Source: a phage
Sequence record: PZ445521.1
Reading direction: 5' to 3' (one strand)
DNA: 64,000 nt
Numbering within the stretch: position 1 is the stretch's first letter; every line of letters starts with the position of its first letter. Positions 2,047 to 62,304 of this stretch are shown one piece after another. Both the position numbers and the translations under genes were made by a program. The notes below the pieces were generated by a model. It ran no database searches and had not been told where the DNA came from. It worked only from the letters and a program-made list of their open reading frames with translations.

Positions 2047-2106
2047 ATATAAATACACTATATCCTTAATTCTTTAATTCTATATGCCCTAGGTTAAACA
2101 TAGGGA

Positions 2107-2114
2107 TATAAATA
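2107..2114 (+). promoter_or_regulatory. T4-type late promoter TATAAATA upstream of gene 19 (second copy at 2048-2055)
   Basis: exact TATAAATA 15 nt before ATG. Confidence 0.7.
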
Positions 2115-2128
2115 CTACAGAGGCTAAT

Positions 2129-2620
2129 ATGTTTGTAGATGATGTAACACGCGCGTTTGAATCGGGTGATTTTGCGCGACCTAACTTATTCCAAGTAGAA
2201 ATTTCTTATCTTGGACAAAATTTTACGTTTCAATGTAAAGCCACTGCTTTACCAGCTGGTATTGTAGAAAAAATTCCAGTCGGATTTATGAACCGTAAAA
2301 TTAACGTAGCAGGTGATCGTACATTCGATGACTGGACTGTTACAGTAATGAACGATGAGGCACATGATGCTCGCCAGAAGTTCGTTGATTGGCAAAGCAT
2401 TGCTGCGGGGCAAGGAAACGAAATTACTGGTGGAAAACCTGCCGAGTATAAAAAGAGCGCTATCGTTCGTCAATATGCTCGTGACGCTAAAACAGTAACA
2501 AAAGAAATTGAAATTAAAGGTCTGTGGCCTACTAACGTGGGTGAACTTCAATTAGATTGGGATTCAAACAATGAAATCCAAACCTTTGAAGTAACTCTTG
2601 CTCTCGATTATTGGGAATAA
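2129..2620 (+). CDS. 19: tail tube protein gp19
   Basis: 163 aa, same as T4 gp19; follows gene 18. Confidence 0.95.
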   Translation: MFVDDVTRAFESGDFARPNLFQVEISYLGQNFTFQCKATALPAGIVEKIPVGFMNRKINVAGDRTFDDWTVTVMNDEAHDARQKFVDWQSIAAGQGNEITGGKPAEYKKSAIVRQYARDAKTVTKEIEIKGLWPTNVGELQLDWDSNNEIQTFEVTLALDYWE

Positions 2621-35831: not shown

Positions 35832-37246
<1,415 letters not shown>

Positions 37247-40293: not shown

Positions 40294-41472
40294 TTAAAAG
40301 TATTTTTTAAAACTCATCATAACTTTATCATCAACATCATTATCAATCTGTGCAACAAGGTAAGATGACAGTTCTACTTCTTGTGGCGCGGATTGAACAT
40401 TATCAGAATTAAGATATTCACGAATCCAAGGATATGGATGTTTAACCGGAGCATCGGTAATCGGGCATGGAAGACCACAATGTTTCATACGAGATACAGT
40501 TAAGTAATCAATAAAGCTCCACATGCTATTTGTATTTAATCCAGGAACATCGCCATCTTTAAATAAATGAACTGCCCAATCTTTTTCTTGGCGGTTAACT
40601 TCCATGAAAATATCAACTGCTTCTTGTTCACACTCTTGAGCAATTTTAACCCATTCATCGCCATCAGTGCCAAGTTGAAGTTGACGAATAATATATTGAG
40701 TGCCTTTAAGGTGAAGCTGCTCATCACGTGCAATGAACTTCATAATCTTGGCATTACCTTCCATGATTTCCATGTTCTTATGGAAGTTAAAGGTACATGC
40801 GAAAGATACATAAAAACGAATAGCTTCCAATGCGTTGATTACATGCAAACAGAGGTAAAGAGATTTCATTAGCTCATGCTTCCAATACGTCTCATGCTCA
40901 ATAGCATCTTCAATAACGTCTTCGTCTGCATTAATTTCTTTTTGGTATTCGATATCAGCTTTAGCGTTTTCCCAATAACGAGTTTTAATCAGAACATCAT
41001 CATAATAACGTCCAATGGATTCAGCACGTTTCATAATAGCTTCATCTAATACAATTTCATCAAATACCTTCGATGGATCAGTATAAAGATTTCGCATGAT
41101 ATGTGTATATGAACGGCTGTGAATAGTTTCACTAAAAGTCCACGTAGCAACCCATGTATCAAGGCTTGGGTCTGAAATTAATGACATAAGTACAGCAGAC
41201 GGCGCACGACCCTGAATGCTATCCAAAAGTGATTGATACTTCAGGTTATTAGTAAAAATATTCTGCTGATACTGAGGAAGTTTATTAAATTGTGCAGCAT
41301 CCATCATCAAGTTTACTTCTTCAGGACGCCAGAAAAATGATAATTGCTTTTCAGTCAAATCTTCAAAAACTTTATGGCGTTGAATATCATAACGCGCAAT
41401 ACCAAGACCTGAACCGAAGAACATAGGTTCTTTTAAAACATCAACTGGATTTGTATTAAAAACTGTGCTCAT
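40294..41472 (-). CDS. nrdB: ribonucleotide reductase small subunit, uninterrupted
   Basis: 392 aa continuous ORF with ferritin-like ligands and C-terminal F. Confidence 0.92.
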   Translation of the reverse strand: MSTVFNTNPVDVLKEPMFFGSGLGIARYDIQRHKVFEDLTEKQLSFFWRPEEVNLMMDAAQFNKLPQYQQNIFTNNLKYQSLLDSIQGRAPSAVLMSLISDPSLDTWVATWTFSETIHSRSYTHIMRNLYTDPSKVFDEIVLDEAIMKRAESIGRYYDDVLIKTRYWENAKADIEYQKEINADEDVIEDAIEHETYWKHELMKSLYLCLHVINALEAIRFYVSFACTFNFHKNMEIMEGNAKIMKFIARDEQLHLKGTQYIIRQLQLGTDGDEWVKIAQECEQEAVDIFMEVNRQEKDWAVHLFKDGDVPGLNTNSMWSFIDYLTVSRMKHCGLPCPITDAPVKHPYPWIREYLNSDNVQSAPQEVELSSYLVAQIDNDVDDKVMMSFKKYF

Positions 41473-41523
41473 AAATTTTCCGCTTAGTTAATAGTTGGTG
41501 ACTCGTCCGTGAGTCAAATTATA

Positions 41524-43788: not shown

Positions 43789-44105
43789 AAGTCCTCAACT
43801 TGAAAATCGTCTTTAAACACTCGGTTAACTATATGAGCTATTATATCACCATGACACGGCTTTGGTTTACATGTGCATCCTAGCCTCATTCCACGTAAAG
43901 GCTCTAAATGTGCTTTAGTTATTTCTCCGGATTTAATTCGACGTATAAAATCTTTTTTGAATAATTCAATGGCAGCCTCCCGGCTGCCAGCATCTTTACC
44001 GACGTAATTTCCCCAAAATGTACCACGGTGAATATTAACATCAAAGTCGGATTTATATTTATTCACTACTCGGCATAGACGGCCCACGCTGGAATAATTC
44101 GTCAT
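43779..44105 (-). CDS. hypothetical protein with CxC...CHGD motif (nrdA.1 position)
   Basis: 108 aa; [13 protein letters not shown]. Confidence 0.6.
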
Positions 44106-44322
44106 ATTGTTTTTCCGTTAAAACAGTAATATCGTAGTAACAGTCAGAAGAAGTTTTAACTGTGGAAATTTTATTATCAAAATACTCACGAGTCATTTTA
44201 TGAGTATAATATTTTTTACCATAAATGATAATAGGCTGTTCTGGTCCTGGAACTTCTAACTCGCTTGGGTTAGGAAGTGTAAAAAGAACAACGCCAGAAG
44301 TATCTTTAAATCGTAAAATCAT
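44059..44322 (-). CDS. hypothetical protein (nrdA.2 position)
   Basis: 87 aa. Confidence 0.55.
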
Positions 44323-45179
44323 ATTGCCATTTTCCCTTTAATTGCTGGATGCGATTCATAATTTTCAAGGATAAAATCTTTCGGTTTCATGTATTCAGTT
44401 AACCAGTAAAGCTGTGTTTCGGTGTCACAATTTCCAAACTCTATAGGCCAATCAATTTTAAGTTCACATAGTTCTTTAGGCTCACGACGTAAAATTTCTT
44501 TACATTGCTCAGTATGATTCATATAGATGTGAGTATTACCACCAGAAAATATCAAATCTCCTGGGATAAGATTACACATCTTAGCCACAATATGCGTCAA
44601 GGCAGCGTACGAGGCAATGTTGAATGGCAATCCCAAGAAAACATCTACACTTCTTTGGTACCATTGTAAATCAAGATAACCATTACGCACATTAAACTGA
44701 TAGAACATATGACAGGGCGGTAATGCCATTTGATTGATTTCAGCTGGATTCCATGCTGAAACGATTTGACGTCGATCAGTTGGTAATTTTTTAATACGAT
44801 CAATAGTTTCAACTAATTGATCCACACCACCGAAATCACGCCATTGTTTACCGTATATAGGACCAAGTTCACCACTATGATATCCTAGGTCTTTAGCCTG
44901 GTTTTCATAGTTATCGTCCCAAATAGTTTTGCCTTGAATAAGACTACCATGAGTGCGAAGACGTAAATCATTAACATTGGTAGAACCGGAAATAAACCAT
45001 AAAAGCTCAGCAATGCATGCATTCCAGGCGAGCTTCTTAGTTGTTACTGCAGGAAAACCTTTACTTAAATCCCAGCGTAATTTAGTACCGAACAAAGCAA
45101 TTGTTCCTGTGCCCGTTCGGTCATCGGTTTCATAGCCATTTTCAAAAATGTCTTTAATTAAATCTTGGTATTGTTTCAT
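44319..45179 (-). CDS. td: thymidylate synthase, uninterrupted
   Basis: 286 aa continuous ORF; active-site PPCH present. Confidence 0.93.
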
Positions 45180-45224: not shown

Positions 45225-45572
45225 TCAATACGGTTTAGCATCAAATTTTCTCTCAATTTCAGGCGTGAAATATAATTCTTTACCGCGTTTGGAAAAGCGA
45301 CCAATAATATGATAATTATTCTCATCAAACGTGATATTACCAATATCCATAGCTTTCAACCAAATATCGATATTTCTATCCAACTTTATGTCAAAATTCC
45401 AATACGGAGAACTATTACCGAAAATACTGCAAGCGGATTCAGTAAAACAACTACTATAAATCTTATCTTTAGGAACTACTAATTGATAGACACCTTTAAT
45501 AAACTGAGGACCCTGCCATTTTGGTTGTTTCGTGTCTTTTTCTAATAGAATAGGGTAATAATTAAAATTCAT
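45225..45572 (-). CDS. hypothetical protein between frd and td
   Basis: 115 aa ORF filling a 412-bp gap between frd stop and td start; no motif recognised. Confidence 0.6.
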   Translation of the reverse strand: MNFNYYPILLEKDTKQPKWQGPQFIKGVYQLVVPKDKIYSSCFTESACSIFGNSSPYWNFDIKLDRNIDIWLKAMDIGNITFDENNYHIIGRFSKRGKELYFTPEIERKFDAKPY

Positions 45573-45591: not shown

Positions 45592-46418
<827 letters not shown>

Positions 46419-46429
46419 ATTATCTCCTA

Positions 46430-46762
46430 TTAAAAAGGATCAGGAACATATCCGCTAGCTTTAATCATTTTAATTAACGTTAACATTCCTTTGTTAACTG
46501 CTCGTGAGATTTCATCAAAAACTTCATCACTAAAAAGTTCTAACACGCCCTTCTGAACTTTTAATTTACAGCCAACAATTTCTTCATCGCCTATAGTAAA
46601 TTCATTACCACCAATTCCACCGAAAAACTTAATTACACCAGTTAACTGTCTTCCACGAGAATATGGGTCGTGTGATAAAGTAATATGAGTCACCCCGGGT
46701 ACAGTTTTAAATTGGCAGCGAATATTTACTTGTGAAATTCCAGTTACATGAATGTCAGACAT
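46430..46762 (-). CDS. hypothetical protein (frd.2 position)
   Basis: 110 aa. Confidence 0.6.
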   Translation of the reverse strand: MSDIHVTGISQVNIRCQFKTVPGVTHITLSHDPYSRGRQLTGVIKFFGGIGGNEFTIGDEEIVGCKLKVQKGVLELFSDEVFDEISRAVNKGMLTLIKMIKASGYVPDPF

Positions 46763-47015: not shown

Positions 47016-47037
47016 TTTATTCTCCTCAAGTTGATAA

Positions 47038-47071
47038 GGCTATAGTATCATTACCATAGCCCGTTGTAAAC
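47038..47071 (-). promoter_or_regulatory. early promoter with hairpin in the spacer
   Basis: minus GTTTAC, 18 nt, TACTAT; inverted repeat ggctat/atagcc. Confidence 0.55.
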
Positions 47072-47073
47072 AA

Positions 47074-47376
47074 TTATTTTTGAATTTTATCGAGCCACTT
47101 ACCAGGCTTAATCATTTCTTTAGTAGCCTTTTCCATACTTCTGAACTTGACCAATAGAGGATAGGTATCGACACCCATAACTAAACTGGTTACAAGACTG
47201 TGTTCACCTACAAGCCATAACGAATACGTTTGAATACCGAGCCCGTAATTTCTGTCTTTATGGACCCGTACACCCATCACTTCAAATTTCTCACTAGCTT
47301 TTTCTACCGCATCCAGGAAATCATCTTTAGTCATATTAGGCCTTAAAAGTTTTTCGCAAAAGTTCAATGATTTCAT
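47074..47376 (-). CDS. hypothetical protein
   Basis: 100 aa. Confidence 0.55.
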   Translation of the reverse strand: MKSLNFCEKLLRPNMTKDDFLDAVEKASEKFEVMGVRVHKDRNYGLGIQTYSLWLVGEHSLVTSLVMGVDTYPLLVKFRSMEKATKEMIKPGKWLDKIQK

Positions 47377-49095: not shown

Positions 49096-49728
49096 TCATA
49101 GCTGGCATAATTCGCAATACTCTGGGTCTTCGAGAGGTATCCAACCCGAGTTGAAATACTTTACCATCGATTTAGCAGTTGTATCAGTTATATTTATATT
49201 ACCTTTAACTCTTCGCCATCCAGGAGTTTTACCGTACAGATTAGAGGATAATAATAACACATAATTCTCGTAAGCAATATGAGATAATTTCCAAGACTCT
49301 ATATTAGCTCGTGATGTTTTCCAAGGTCTGAAATCGTCACGGTTCATATAATTAGCCAATCTCATATGCTCTCTAACTTCCGGGTCTTTAGCTGGGTGAG
49401 TTTCACCACTCACACCAAATCCGCCGCCAGCATATACCAGATTAAAATAGTCTGGATTATCTCTGGCATTTACTTCAAGTTGGTATTTTCGCTCTGCTTC
49501 AATAACATCCAAATCATCATCAATTTGAATTATTTTAACGCTCGGTTTTTGAAGCATTACCGCATTTAAAAATCTTTTTTGTTTACACGAACTCCAGTAT
49601 TCCTTTCCGGAAGAGTCATATATTATTCCGTTCTCAAATGAGCAATTTAATTTACTACCGATATAGTAGTATGGCGGAGTCTTATTTTTGACACGGTCTT
49701 CAAATGTAAACCAATATACTATATTCAT
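49096..49728 (-). CDS. GIY-YIG homing endonuclease, SegG-like
   Basis: 210 aa; N-terminal VYW...YYIGS; sits between 59 and 32. Confidence 0.65.
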   Translation of the reverse strand: MNIVYWFTFEDRVKNKTPPYYYIGSKLNCSFENGIIYDSSGKEYWSSCKQKRFLNAVMLQKPSVKIIQIDDDLDVIEAERKYQLEVNARDNPDYFNLVYAGGGFGVSGETHPAKDPEVREHMRLANYMNRDDFRPWKTSRANIESWKLSHIAYENYVLLLSSNLYGKTPGWRRVKGNINITDTTAKSMVKYFNSGWIPLEDPEYCELCQL

Positions 49729-57725: not shown

Positions 57726-60700
57726 ATGGCTACTTTAAAACAAATACAATTTAAAAGAAGCAAAACCGCAGGTGCACGTCCTGCTGCTTCAGTATTAGCC
57801 GAAGGTGAATTGGCTATAAATTTAAAAGATAGAACAATTTTTACTAAAGACGATTCAGGAAATATCATTGACTTAAGCATTTCCGCTGGCGGTAATATCA
57901 GTGGTAATATCACTCAAACTGGTGATTATACACAGACTGGAAAATTTAATTTAATTGGCCCGCAGATTATAGCAAGTGGTGGATATATTGAGTTTAATTA
58001 TCGTACTACTGGAAGTGGGGCTTGGTCCGGTCAACACACTGCAAAGGCTCCAATTTTTGTAGATTTAAGCTCAGCTACTTCCACATCTGAATATAATCCT
58101 ATAATTAAACAGCGCTTTAAAGATGGAACTTTTTCATTAGGTACTTTAGTTTCTGAAGGTTCGTTGAAGATTCATTATATTGATGAAACTGGTCAATCTA
58201 AATATTGGACATTTGCGCGCTCAGGTAATTTTCAAGTTGATTCTGGTAATTTATTAGTATCTGGTGGGTATTTAGTCGCTCAGAGTAATATTGAAACAAG
58301 AACAGGTTCTTTGATTGGTCCATCTGTTGTAACTAAAAATATTTCATTTGATACGAAAGCGTTTGGACAATACGATTCGCAGTCATTAGTTCAATATGTT
58401 TATCCTGGAACTGGTGAAACAAACGGAATTAATTACCTTCGTAAATTCCGTGCAAAATCTGGTGGTACGATTTATCATGAATTAGCTTCTGCACAAACCG
58501 GAAAAAGTGATGAACTGTCTTGGTGGACCGGTAATACAGCCGTTAATAAACAAATGGGCCTTCGCAATGATGGGTCTTTAGTGTTGCGACGCTCACTCGC
58601 AATTGGTACAATTACAACAGATGAAAACATTAATAATTACGGCTCAACTGGAGCAATGGGTGAATGCTATATAGTCATTGGAGATGCCGCAACTGGTGTA
58701 TCATATAAAAGATCTGGTGTATATGATTTAGTTGCTAATGGTCTTTCTATCGCGTCTATTACTCCTGACAGTTTCCGTAGTACTCGTAAAGCATTATTTG
58801 GACGTTCAGAAGACCAAGGCGGAACATGGAATATGCCTGGAACGAACGCCGCGTTTTTATCGGTTCAAACACAGGCTGATGAAAACACTGCTGGAGACGG
58901 TCAAACCCATATTGGATATAACTCTGGCGGTAAAATGAACCACTATTTCCGTGGTAAAGGAAAAACTAATATTAATACTCAAGAAGGCATGGAAGTTAAC
59001 CCGGGTATTTTGAAATTGGTAACTGGCTCTAATAATGTAATGTTTTATGCTGATGGCGGTATTACATCTGTTAAGCAGCTTTCAATATATAACGGCATAT
59101 ATTTAGCAGCTAATAATTCTACTGCTGGGCTAACATTCGCTCCAACTACTACAATTGATGGCACTAAGCAAATTTTGTGGGAAGGCGGTACTCGTGCTGG
59201 TCAGAATAAAAGCTATGTAACTGTTAAAGCATGGGGTAATTCATTTAACGCATCTGGCGATCGTAATCGTGAAACGGTTTTTGAAGTAGCTGATGGACAA
59301 GGATATTATTTTTATTCACAGCGTGTGGCTCCAAGTGGCTCTGAAACTACTGGGCCTGTTGTAACCCAGTTCAATGGACAAGTTAATGCTAGAGGAAGTA
59401 TTATTACTGACGGAAGTTTTAAAGTTAATGGATTAAGCACTTTAGTCGGTAATGTTACCATGTCTAATGGTTTGTTTGTTCAAGGTGGTTCTTCTATTAC
59501 AGGCCAAGTAAAAATTGGTGGAACAGCAGATGCATTAAGAATTTGGAATGCTGAATACGGGGCTATTTTCCGTCGTTCTGAAGATAAGCTTTATATTATT
59601 CCAACTCCGCAGAATGCTGGTGAATCAGGTGGTATTTCTAATTTACGTCCGTTCTATATTACATTAAGTACTGGTAAAGTTTCCATGGATCATGATGTAG
59701 ATATCGGCGGCGGTAGATTTAAAGTAGAAGTGGCTGGAACTACGGCTGGTCAACGTATTATAGTTAATGCAGCGAGCGATGCTATTAGAATAAATGCTCC
59801 AACACAAGAGTCTTCTAACTTCATTCAAGGACGTAAGGCTGATGTGAATAAATGGTATTTGGGTATTGGCGATGGCGGCAACGTCGTTCGTATGCACAGC
59901 TACACATATTCACATGGTATTGCATTAAATTCTGATTCTGTCGATATTACTAAGCCTCTTAAAGTCGGAAACGCCCAACTAGGAACTGACGGTAATATTA
60001 CCAATGGTTCAGGAAACTTTGCCAACTTAAATACCACGTTAAATCGTAAAGTTAATTCTGGATTTATTACTTATGGAGCAACCTCTGGATGGTATAAGTT
60101 TGCAACTGTAACAATGCCACAATCCACTTCAACAGTCTTCTTTAAAATAGTTGGAGGTTCTGGATTTAATAGCGGATTATTCACACAATGTAATATTGCT
60201 GAAATTGTTTTACGTACTAGTAATGAAAGACCTGCTGACTTAAATGCTGCATTATACACAAGAACAATTGGAGCTGCATTTAAAGATATTGCAGTTAATA
60301 ACGTCTCTGGAGATACATATGACATTTATGTTTCTGCTGGAACATATTGTAATCAATTAGCTTGTGAGTGGTCATGTACCGAAAATGCTACTGTTAGTGT
60401 TATTGGTATTAACTCATCTACACAATCACCTGTAGATGCTCTTCCAGATACAGCAGTTAACGGTCAAGTTGCTAATGTTCTTAATAACTTGGTTGATCGC
60501 GGTAAAGTTAAGCGTTATGAAGCCGATTCTGAAATAGCTATTAATAGCCCAACCGGTATTCGTATCAGAAGCAATGGCGATAAAACTGGTTCTGTGGCTA
60601 CAATGTTACGAAATGATGGCGGTAGTTTTTATATTCTGTTTACAGATAAAAATGCCACCGATGGCGCAGCAACTGTTAATGGTGATTGGAATAGTAAACG

Positions 60701-61487
60701 TCCTTTCGCAATTAACTTAACAACCGGCGAAGTGATGATGAATAATGGCATAGCTGTTCGCAGCGCTGCTTTATTCTATAATAGCATAAACGTCAAAGAT
60801 AATGGTTCTATTAACTTTGATAAATCAGGTGCTAACCCGAGAAATATGAGAATATTTCATGCTGGCGATGCTTCTCGCGGTAACCGTATTGAAATTGCCG
60901 ATGAAACTAACTATATTGCTTACTTTGAAAAAACTCCAGGTGGAGCTAACCGCTTTGTAGTAAATAATGCTACTGTGGCTGGTGTTAATCAAATGAATTC
61001 ATTTGGTATTAACATCAATAACGCACTTGGTGGAAACAGTATAGCATTTGGTGATAATGACACTGGCATTAAACAATCCGGTGACGGACTTCTTGATATC
61101 ATTACTAACGCCGCACGACGAATGAGATTCCAGACGGGTGACACTTATTCTGACATGAATATAAATGCTCCAAACGTTTATATTCGTTCTGATATTCGTT
61201 TGAAATCTAATTTCAGACCTATTGAAAATGCTCTTGAAAAGGTTGAGCAGCTTGATGGTTTAATCTATGATAAAGCTGACTATATAGGTGGTGAAATTGT
61301 TCAGACTGAAGCAGGTGTTATTGCTCAGAAATTGAACGAAGTATTACCTGAAGCAGTTCGTGAAGTTGAAGATATTAAGGGTAATAAAATACTCACTATT
61401 TCTTCTCAATCCCAGATTGCTCTTCTAGTTGAAGCTGTGAAAACACTTTCTGCTCGTGTAAAAGAACTTGAATCTAAACTTATGTAA
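57726..61487 (+). CDS. 37: long tail fibre distal subunit gp37, T2/T6-type with C-terminal chaperone-like domain
   Basis: 1253 aa; N-terminus as gp37; C-terminal about 100 aa from SDIRLKSN resembles an auto-cleaving intramolecular chaperone. Confidence 0.9.
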   Translation: MATLKQIQFKRSKTAGARPAASVLAEGELAINLKDRTIFTKDDSGNIIDLSISAGGNISGNITQTGDYTQTGKFNLIGPQIIASGGYIEFNYRTTGSGAWSGQHTAKAPIFVDLSSATSTSEYNPIIKQRFKDGTFSLGTLVSEGSLKIHYIDETGQSKYWTFARSGNFQVDSGNLLVSGGYLVAQSNIETRTGSLIGPSVVTKNISFDTKAFGQYDSQSLVQYVYPGTGETNGINYLRKFRAKSGGTIYHELASAQTGKSDELSWWTGNTAVNKQMGLRNDGSLVLRRSLAIGTITTDENINNYGSTGAMGECYIVIGDAATGVSYKRSGVYDLVANGLSIASITPDSFRSTRKALFGRSEDQGGTWNMPGTNAAFLSVQTQADENTAGDGQTHIGYNSGGKMNHYFRGKGKTNINTQEGMEVNPGILKLVTGSNNVMFYADGGITSVKQLSIYNGIYLAANNSTAGLTFAPTTTIDGTKQILWEGGTRAGQNKSYVTVKAWGNSFNASGDRNRETVFEVADGQGYYFYSQRVAPSGSETTGPVVTQFNGQVNARGSIITDGSFKVNGLSTLVGNVTMSNGLFVQGGSSITGQVKIGGTADALRIWNAEYGAIFRRSEDKLYIIPTPQNAGESGGISNLRPFYITLSTGKVSMDHDVDIGGGRFKVEVAGTTAGQRIIVNAASDAIRINAPTQESSNFIQGRKADVNKWYLGIGDGGNVVRMHSYTYSHGIALNSDSVDITKPLKVGNAQLGTDGNITNGSGNFANLNTTLNRKVNSGFITYGATSGWYKFATVTMPQSTSTVFFKIVGGSGFNSGLFTQCNIAEIVLRTSNERPADLNAALYTRTIGAAFKDIAVNNVSGDTYDIYVSAGTYCNQLACEWSCTENATVSVIGINSSTQSPVDALPDTAVNGQVANVLNNLVDRGKVKRYEADSEIAINSPTGIRIRSNGDKTGSVATMLRNDGGSFYILFTDKNATDGAATVNGDWNSKRPFAINLTTGEVMMNNGIAVRSAALFYNSINVKDNGSINFDKSGANPRNMRIFHAGDASRGNRIEIADETNYIAYFEKTPGGANRFVVNNATVAGVNQMNSFGININNALGGNSIAFGDNDTGIKQSGDGLLDIITNAARRMRFQTGDTYSDMNINAPNVYIRSDIRLKSNFRPIENALEKVEQLDGLIYDKADYIGGEIVQTEAGVIAQKLNEVLPEAVREVEDIKGNKILTISSQSQIALLVEAVKTLSARVKELESKLM

Positions 61488-61488
61488 A

Positions 61489-61506
61489 AGAGGGCTTCGG
61501 CCCTCT
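61489..61506 (+). terminator. hairpin between genes 37 and 38
   Basis: agagggcttcggccctct then T-rich tract. Confidence 0.5.
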
Positions 61507-61518
61507 AAGGATTTTTTA

Positions 61519-62304
61519 ATGGCAATTGTAGGTGTTCCTGGCTGGATTGGTGAATCTGCCGTGAATGAAACTGGACAACGTTGGATGGATGCTGCAATGA
61601 GAGCAGTCCGTGTTTCAGTTCCCGGTTGGATGAGCTCAATGGCCGGACAATCTAAAGAAGTATATTATAGCATTGGTGCTAGTAATTCTTATAATAAAGA
61701 TACATTAATAAACTGGATAAAAGCACAAGGGTCCACGCCTGTTGTTATTACTATTACAGGAAATATTGTTTCTCAATCTACTGGTGTTCCATGCTTAGAT
61801 TTTCCTAGCTCATTAACTAATGCATACGTGACACTTAATATCAATTCAGGCGTGCATGTTTGGGGCCGTGGCGGGAATGGCGGAAATAACTCTGCAGGTG
61901 GAGCAGGAGGAACTGCAATAAATAATGGAATTGGAACTAGATTGCGTATTAACAACAATGGTGTTATCGCAGGAGGCGGTGGCGGCGGTGGCGGCGGATA
62001 TTATTCTCCTTTTTCACAAATGAAATTGACTTTTGGCGGTGGCGGCGGTCGTCCATTTGGTGCTGCTGGCGGGTCTGCTAATATGGAACAGGGCGCTACT
62101 GCTGGTACTATTTCTGCACCTGGTAAAGGGTCTGTCAATGGTATCTATAATGGCGGGAATGGCGGTGATGCTGGTGCCGCAGGTGGTAAATGTAATATTC
62201 GTGGGCAAGGATCAGAATATAACGGCGGTGCGGCTGGTAAAGCTGTTACTGGTAATGCTCCAACTTGGACTAAGGTTGGTACAATATATGGTTCAAGAGT
62301 ATAA
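61519..62304 (+). CDS. 38: receptor-recognising adhesin gp38, T2/T6-type with glycine-rich motifs
   Basis: 261 aa from ATG at 61519 (AAGG RBS); several poly-Gly tracts; the track start at 61468 lies inside gene 37. Confidence 0.85.
   Translation: MAIVGVPGWIGESAVNETGQRWMDAAMRAVRVSVPGWMSSMAGQSKEVYYSIGASNSYNKDTLINWIKAQGSTPVVITITGNIVSQSTGVPCLDFPSSLTNAYVTLNINSGVHVWGRGGNGGNNSAGGAGGTAINNGIGTRLRINNNGVIAGGGGGGGGGYYSPFSQMKLTFGGGGGRPFGAAGGSANMEQGATAGTISAPGKGSVNGIYNGGNGGDAGAAGGKCNIRGQGSEYNGGAAGKAVTGNAPTWTKVGTIYGSRV

Follow-up and report, generated by a model that had tools for sequence, protein, structure and literature searches.

Why is the thymidylate synthase gene td of a T4-like phage uninterrupted at the place where T4 carries an intron? 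The irregular spread of td introns among T-even phages has long been established and first hinted at their mobility (PMC2988022, PMC2993671). The stretch of phage DNA analysed here (64,000 nucleotides of sequence record PZ445521.1, hereafter the window) contains a td gene that an earlier note, made from the letters alone, had described as intronless, set against a T4 gene split by the intron that encodes the endonuclease I-TevI. That description of T4 is true of the reference genome (NC_000866), whose td consists of a 549-nt exon 1, a 1017-nt intron and a 312-nt exon 2. It leaves the questions of whether the window gene is T4 td minus its intron or an allele of a different lineage, and whether its site is empty by lack of invasion, by resistance, by loss or by artefact.

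The window td occupies 44319..45179 on the minus strand as one uninterrupted frame of 861 nt, which begins with ATG and ends with TGA according to both the list of open reading frames and direct reading. The earlier note had placed a single 286-aa frame including a PPCH region at this position but had not stated its strand; the frame list, the Pfam family PF00303, the T4 thymidylate synthase structure 1TIS and the annotation of the same gene in phage JK38 (QEG06075.1) all support the assignment. Residues 2-286 of the product align with the whole of PF00303 (profile positions 1-266 of 266) at E=4.7e-96 and 321.5 bits, against a cut-off of 24.3, and with the NCBIfam model TIGR03284 the product reaches 300.9 bits (cut-off 108.35). 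Profile scores of this size are far beyond chance. The closest solved structure is 1TIS itself, aligned 1-286 on 1-286 with E=6e-171.

In thymidylate synthases the catalytic cysteine lies in the PPCH motif, and R21, R136/R137 and R176 (T4 numbering) are the dUMP-binding arginines. The window gene encodes PPCH as CCG CCC TGT CAT (residues 154-157, 44709..44720, minus strand, read directly), as in the T4 enzyme, which places the catalytic residue at Cys156. Alignments show that R21, E58, R136/R137, C156/H157, Q175-R176-S177, D179, N187 and H217/Y219 are the same in the window product and T4 thymidylate synthase, and the DRTGTG, DRRQ and QRS motifs match exactly. With full-length matches to PF00303 and TIGR03284, the PPCH cysteine and the dUMP-binding arginines all present, the predicted product has the features of a ThyA-type enzyme. 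It would methylate dUMP to dTMP with 5,10-methylene-tetrahydrofolate, and would act together with the products of its neighbours frd, nrdA and nrdB in the T-even nucleotide-precursor cluster.

For comparison with T4 the exon junction was set explicitly and the spliced gene was then aligned without gaps. T4 exon 1 ends with CTTGGGT, the intron (TAATTGAGG...ATAATG) holds I-TevI, and exon 2 begins with CTACCG. The earlier note had proposed alignment to the T4 exons as a check and had named truncation or a frameshift relative to the spliced T4 gene as the outcome that would speak against its reading; the two genes align 861 against 861 nt, and neither defect is present, so that reading holds. Identity over the 861 gapless positions is 77.1% at the nucleotide and 82.9% at the amino acid level. 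The 1017-nt T4 intron falls exactly at the junction of codons 183 and 184. Mapped onto the window, this junction is the empty insertion site between Gly183 (GGA) and Leu184 (TTG) at 44630..44631 on the minus strand, and the matching segments between T4 and the window stop at 44627/44632, no more than 4 nt from it.

Searches with the T4 sequences gave the same picture. No match to the T4 td intron was found anywhere in the 64-kb window by blastn (word size 11, E<=1e-3), and tblastn with I-TevI, I-TevIII and MobE returned only chance matches in the window with E>=0.3, including a single one for I-TevI (E=0.44). The absence of intron and endonuclease rests on these blastn and tblastn searches. 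An Rfam scan for group I introns also gave no match in the window, but it was equally blind to the known introns of T4 and of phages e11/2 and Lutter, so its negative result carries no weight. At gathering thresholds, Rfam release 15 reported no group I intron in T4 134000-148000 or in the e11/2 and Lutter loci, all of which contain known td or nrdB introns; Rfam negatives are unreliable for phage group I introns that contain open reading frames. The window td is thus not an allele of the intron-containing type found in T4, T6 and RB3: it has neither the group I intron nor the GIY-YIG endonuclease I-TevI, as the earlier note had claimed. Because it is intron-minus, its mRNA needs no self-splicing.

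An intron could also be missing through collapse or removal during assembly or annotation, an explanation that we regard as next to impossible. The window sequence is itself continuous, the same gene occurs in many independently sequenced phages, and genomes that do have the intron readily assemble with it. An identical continuous td in independent genomes excludes an assembly error. Over 2.6 kb from frd through td to nrdA, the window shows 100% nucleotide identity with Shigella phage JK38 (MK962755.1), a sewage isolate assigned to Tequatrovirus zeezee23, which is a different species from T4. JK38 has the same gene order as the window and annotates td as a single thymidylate synthase coding sequence; we found no difference between the two. 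The td of Escherichia phage slur07 is likewise 100% identical to that of the window.

The intronless state is also common. Matches to the T4 td intron occur in 260 phage records (197 at a coverage of at least 80%), whereas td itself is present in 669-711, and only three of 80 dereplicated td loci from IMG/VR are interrupted after codon 183 (L037, L042 and L071). Intron-minus is the commonest state of td and applies to roughly 60-70% of sequenced T4-like phages. The earlier note had offered the intronless gene as a mark of a phage other than T4; the gene is indeed intronless, but so is td in most T4-like phages sequenced, and the state is therefore not distinctive. The observation is correct and already known, as the exact sequence has been deposited and annotated for JK38. 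For annotation, it means that td and nrdB should each be entered as a single coding sequence and the phage as a Tequatrovirus other than T4. What the comparison adds is a td lineage distinct from those of T4 and T2, an empty I-TevI site, and a probable natural invasion of the same lineage by the intron.

The window gene shares with T4 td its enzyme family, its length of 286 aa, its place between frd and nrdA.2, its catalytic motifs and the residues at the insertion site; it differs in having neither the 1017-nt intron nor I-TevI. The td of T2 is the classical intron-minus recipient allele. T2 td (AY310907) resembles the window gene in being an uninterrupted, intron-minus gene of 861 nt, and the segment with an open reading frame between frd and td that is described below is present in T2 as well. 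The two intron-minus genes nevertheless differ in descent: that of T2 falls within the T4 lineage, being 95.8% identical to T4 but only 77.9% to the window. Between -27 and +18 of the homing site, T2 has about 7 differences from T4 and the window has 15. Since T2 is so close to T4 while the window is only 77-78% identical to either, the window td is, by sequence comparison, a separate allele lineage and not T4 td minus its intron.

Divergence between the window and T4 td is uneven, with more than 90% identity over the first 150 nt. At the other extreme, alignments show codons 241-265 (44385..44459, minus strand) to be unrelated to both T4 and T2 td, with about 27% nucleotide identity; this may be a surface segment close to the C-terminus that is hypervariable or has been exchanged by recombination. 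The flanks of this segment are 80-95% identical to T4 and T2 td. Many phage td alleles cease to align near nt 720-726.

Whether such an allele could be invaded depends on its I-TevI target. I-TevI recognizes about 38 bp: it binds 20 bp that have the insertion site at their centre, and its cut falls at 5'-CNNNG-3', 23/25 nt upstream; it contacts the minor groove and tolerates sequence changes (PMC2988022). C1 and G5 of CNNNG are critical, and many central triplets make poor substrates (PMC5009752). The equivalent of the homing site (-27..+11, as defined in PMC2988022 and approximate in its limits) aligns to 44620..44657 on the minus strand. It has no insertions or deletions relative to T4 and 10 substitutions, at -24, -22, -21, -20, -19, -1, +1, +3, +6 and +9, with further ones at +12 and +18. 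In the 20-bp primary binding region around the insertion site, 5-6 positions differ from T4, although no rule predicts I-TevI binding from sequence. The equivalent of the cleavage motif (-27..-23), identified by alignment and direct reading, is CAAAG at 44653..44657 on the minus strand, where T4 has CAACG, and lies in the codons for Gln175 and Arg176.

The earlier note had asked whether the I-TevI site is intact. It is empty and keeps C-27 and G-23 of CNNNG at the native distance from the insertion site, but with CAAAG in place of CAACG and with silent changes around it. We found no published I-TevI activity value for CAAAG in the text and supplements of PMC5009752, in the abstract of PMC4117789 or by literature search. 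The C and G of the motif, which are base 1 of the Gln175 codon and base 2 of the Arg176 codon, are kept at 80 of 80 IMG/VR loci; because the Gln-Arg codons force CNNNG, its retention says little about susceptibility to I-TevI. Judged by its sequence, the window site is formally compatible with cleavage.

These silent changes invite the explanation that the window gene is an escape allele, in which substitutions in the I-TevI site lead to poor or no cleavage and the intron is absent by resistance rather than by lack of exposure. All of the substitutions, including the 10 in -27..+11 and the 7 in -1..+18, are synonymous, and the type is common, with 106 records at least 95% identical to the window td, most of which appear intron-minus. 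Yet the silent divergence over -27..+11 (about 26%) is close to the 23% of the whole gene and gives no sign of targeted change, and I-TevI is known to tolerate multiple changes (PMC2988022). Further evidence against resistance is that two phages, e11/2 and Lutter, carry the intron within exons of the window type, flanked by conversion tracts of the homing type. We therefore consider resistance quite improbable as the reason for the empty site. A stronger form, in which the whole lineage is a poor I-TevI substrate that became prevalent by selection for resistance while e11/2 and Lutter acquired the intron through an I-TevI variant of altered preference or endonuclease-independent recombination, seems to us very improbable.

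The two phages belong to the same td allele lineage as the window. Their exons are 97.1% (e11/2, KJ668714) and 96.7% (Lutter, MT682714) identical to the window td and only 79% identical to T4, but unlike the window gene both bear the td intron at the codon 183/184 site. At the positions that distinguish the window from T4, T4-type bases are confined to -28..+9 in e11/2 and to -45..+6 in Lutter; elsewhere both are of the window type. The intron of Lutter is full-length (1016 nt), whereas that of e11/2 measures 445 nt, with the I-TevI reading frame deleted.

Short tracts beginning close to the cleavage site and reaching further into exon I are a signature of double-strand-break repair initiated by I-TevI (PMC2988022). 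The T4-type patches of e11/2 and Lutter are short and biased towards exon I, thus matching this documented co-conversion bias, and are consistent with natural intron homing into an allele of the window type. Because tract end-points and intron forms differ between the two phages, they suggest at least two separate invasion events. Their ancestors presumably had exactly the cleavage site of the window, the recipient sites themselves having been overwritten by the conversion tract. Ordinary recombination that involves no endonuclease could in principle produce similar patches.

In group I splicing, a U at -1 and the first bases of exon 2 form the P1 and P10 pairings with the intron, and the converted stretch includes both. 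Since the window base at -1 is A, a spliceable product would call for co-conversion. Together, the window allele and the intron-plus genes of e11/2 and Lutter appear to form a natural before-and-after set for short, exon-I-biased I-TevI co-conversion. The e11/2 intron (positions 2050..2494 of locus L003) retains positions 1-236 and 790-1017 of the T4 intron and is annotated with a 55-aa I-TevI remnant. It is an endonuclease-deleted td intron in the wild, comparable to the defective I-TevIII of the T4 nrdB intron.

The patchy presence of the intron among close relatives, and the stage of degeneration that the endonuclease-deleted e11/2 intron represents in nature, also lend themselves to secondary loss, in which an ancestral intron was removed precisely from the window gene by recombination, either with a phage that lacks the intron or with reverse-transcribed spliced mRNA. 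The insertion site argues against it. A donor-type footprint (T at -1 and CTACCG at +1..+6) was absent from the window insertion site in the alignment and in the comparison with the 80 IMG/VR loci: the site reads GGA/TTGCCA, like many intron-minus T4-like alleles, rather than GGT/CTACCG as in the donor type. We consider such loss unlikely. An intron that is lost when the gene recombines with an intron-minus allele leaves no trace, so this route and a gene that was never invaded look alike in the sequence; the window allele was either never invaded, or a past invasion was erased by recombination of this kind.

Taken as a whole, the evidence makes it highly probable that the window td is a functional thymidylate synthase gene of the thyA type, in the intron-minus state, with an unoccupied I-TevI homing site at codons 183/184. 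If this phage shared a cell with T4, T6, RB3 or another intron-plus phage, I-TevI would probably attach to the region of the insertion site and break the DNA at CAAAG, 23/25 nt upstream. Repair of the double-strand break would then bring in the intron along with a short piece of the adjoining donor exon.

The earlier note had joined the intronless td to an intronless nrdB and a T2/T6-type fibre tip and had concluded that the phage is not T4 but a mosaic relative of it; each of these points is borne out. By comparison with T4, nrdB (40294..41472, minus strand, 392 aa) is uninterrupted and has neither the nrdB intron nor I-TevIII: the T4 exons meet directly at 40799/40796, a point occupied in T4 by about 600 nt of intron. 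MobE is an HNH homing endonuclease. The nrdA-nrdB gap of the window is only 51 nt (41473..41523), and T4 mobE and nrdB.1 have no counterpart. The annotation of JK38 places a segG-like homing endonuclease at about 49096..49728 of the window.

The fibre tip is indicated by an open reading frame at 61468..62304 that matches the Pfam families GP38 adhesin and Gp38_N (E=4.3e-72), as in T2 and T6. This gp38 adhesin follows a gp37 homologue (57726..61487, plus strand, 1253 aa) with a C-terminal Peptidase_S74 intramolecular-chaperone domain. Over 14 kb, comparison with T4 gives a patchwork of segments of 84-97% identity with insertions and deletions and with stretches found only in T4 or only in the window, and the mosaic reading agrees with the deposited taxonomy, Tequatrovirus zeezee23.

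Immediately downstream of td lies a homologue of nrdA.2 (44059..44322, minus strand; reading-frame list and Pfam, DUF5496). The td stop codon overlaps its ATG (ATGA, 44319..44322), which suggests translational coupling; T4 has a gap of about 20 nt here. Upstream, frd encodes dihydrofolate reductase in the 193-aa form annotated in JK38 (45592..46173, minus strand; Pfam PF00186). In T4 and e11/2, frd and td overlap; in the window, a 115-aa open reading frame that is absent from T4 stands between them (45225..45572, minus strand; reading-frame list and T4 comparison).

Some 363 phage records contain this segment, always beside frd; T2, T6 and RB3 are among them. The 115-aa product belongs to PHROG 1928, a small family of 17 representative clusters with no assigned function. 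One record labels it a putative homing endonuclease, and a free-standing endonuclease was accordingly considered, but motif, profile and fold searches do not support the label. The product matched no sequence in Pfam, NCBIfam or the PDB, no nuclease motif was seen in an alignment of 19 sequences, and a confident AF2 model gave no significant fold match. Upstream of frd, in the region 46190..46750, two further small minus-strand open reading frames, at 46173..46418 (81 aa, PHROG 3183) and 46430..46762 (110 aa, PHROG 3566), have no counterpart at the T4 locus. Other stretches present in the window and not in T4 lie at 36927..37239 and 47027..47342.
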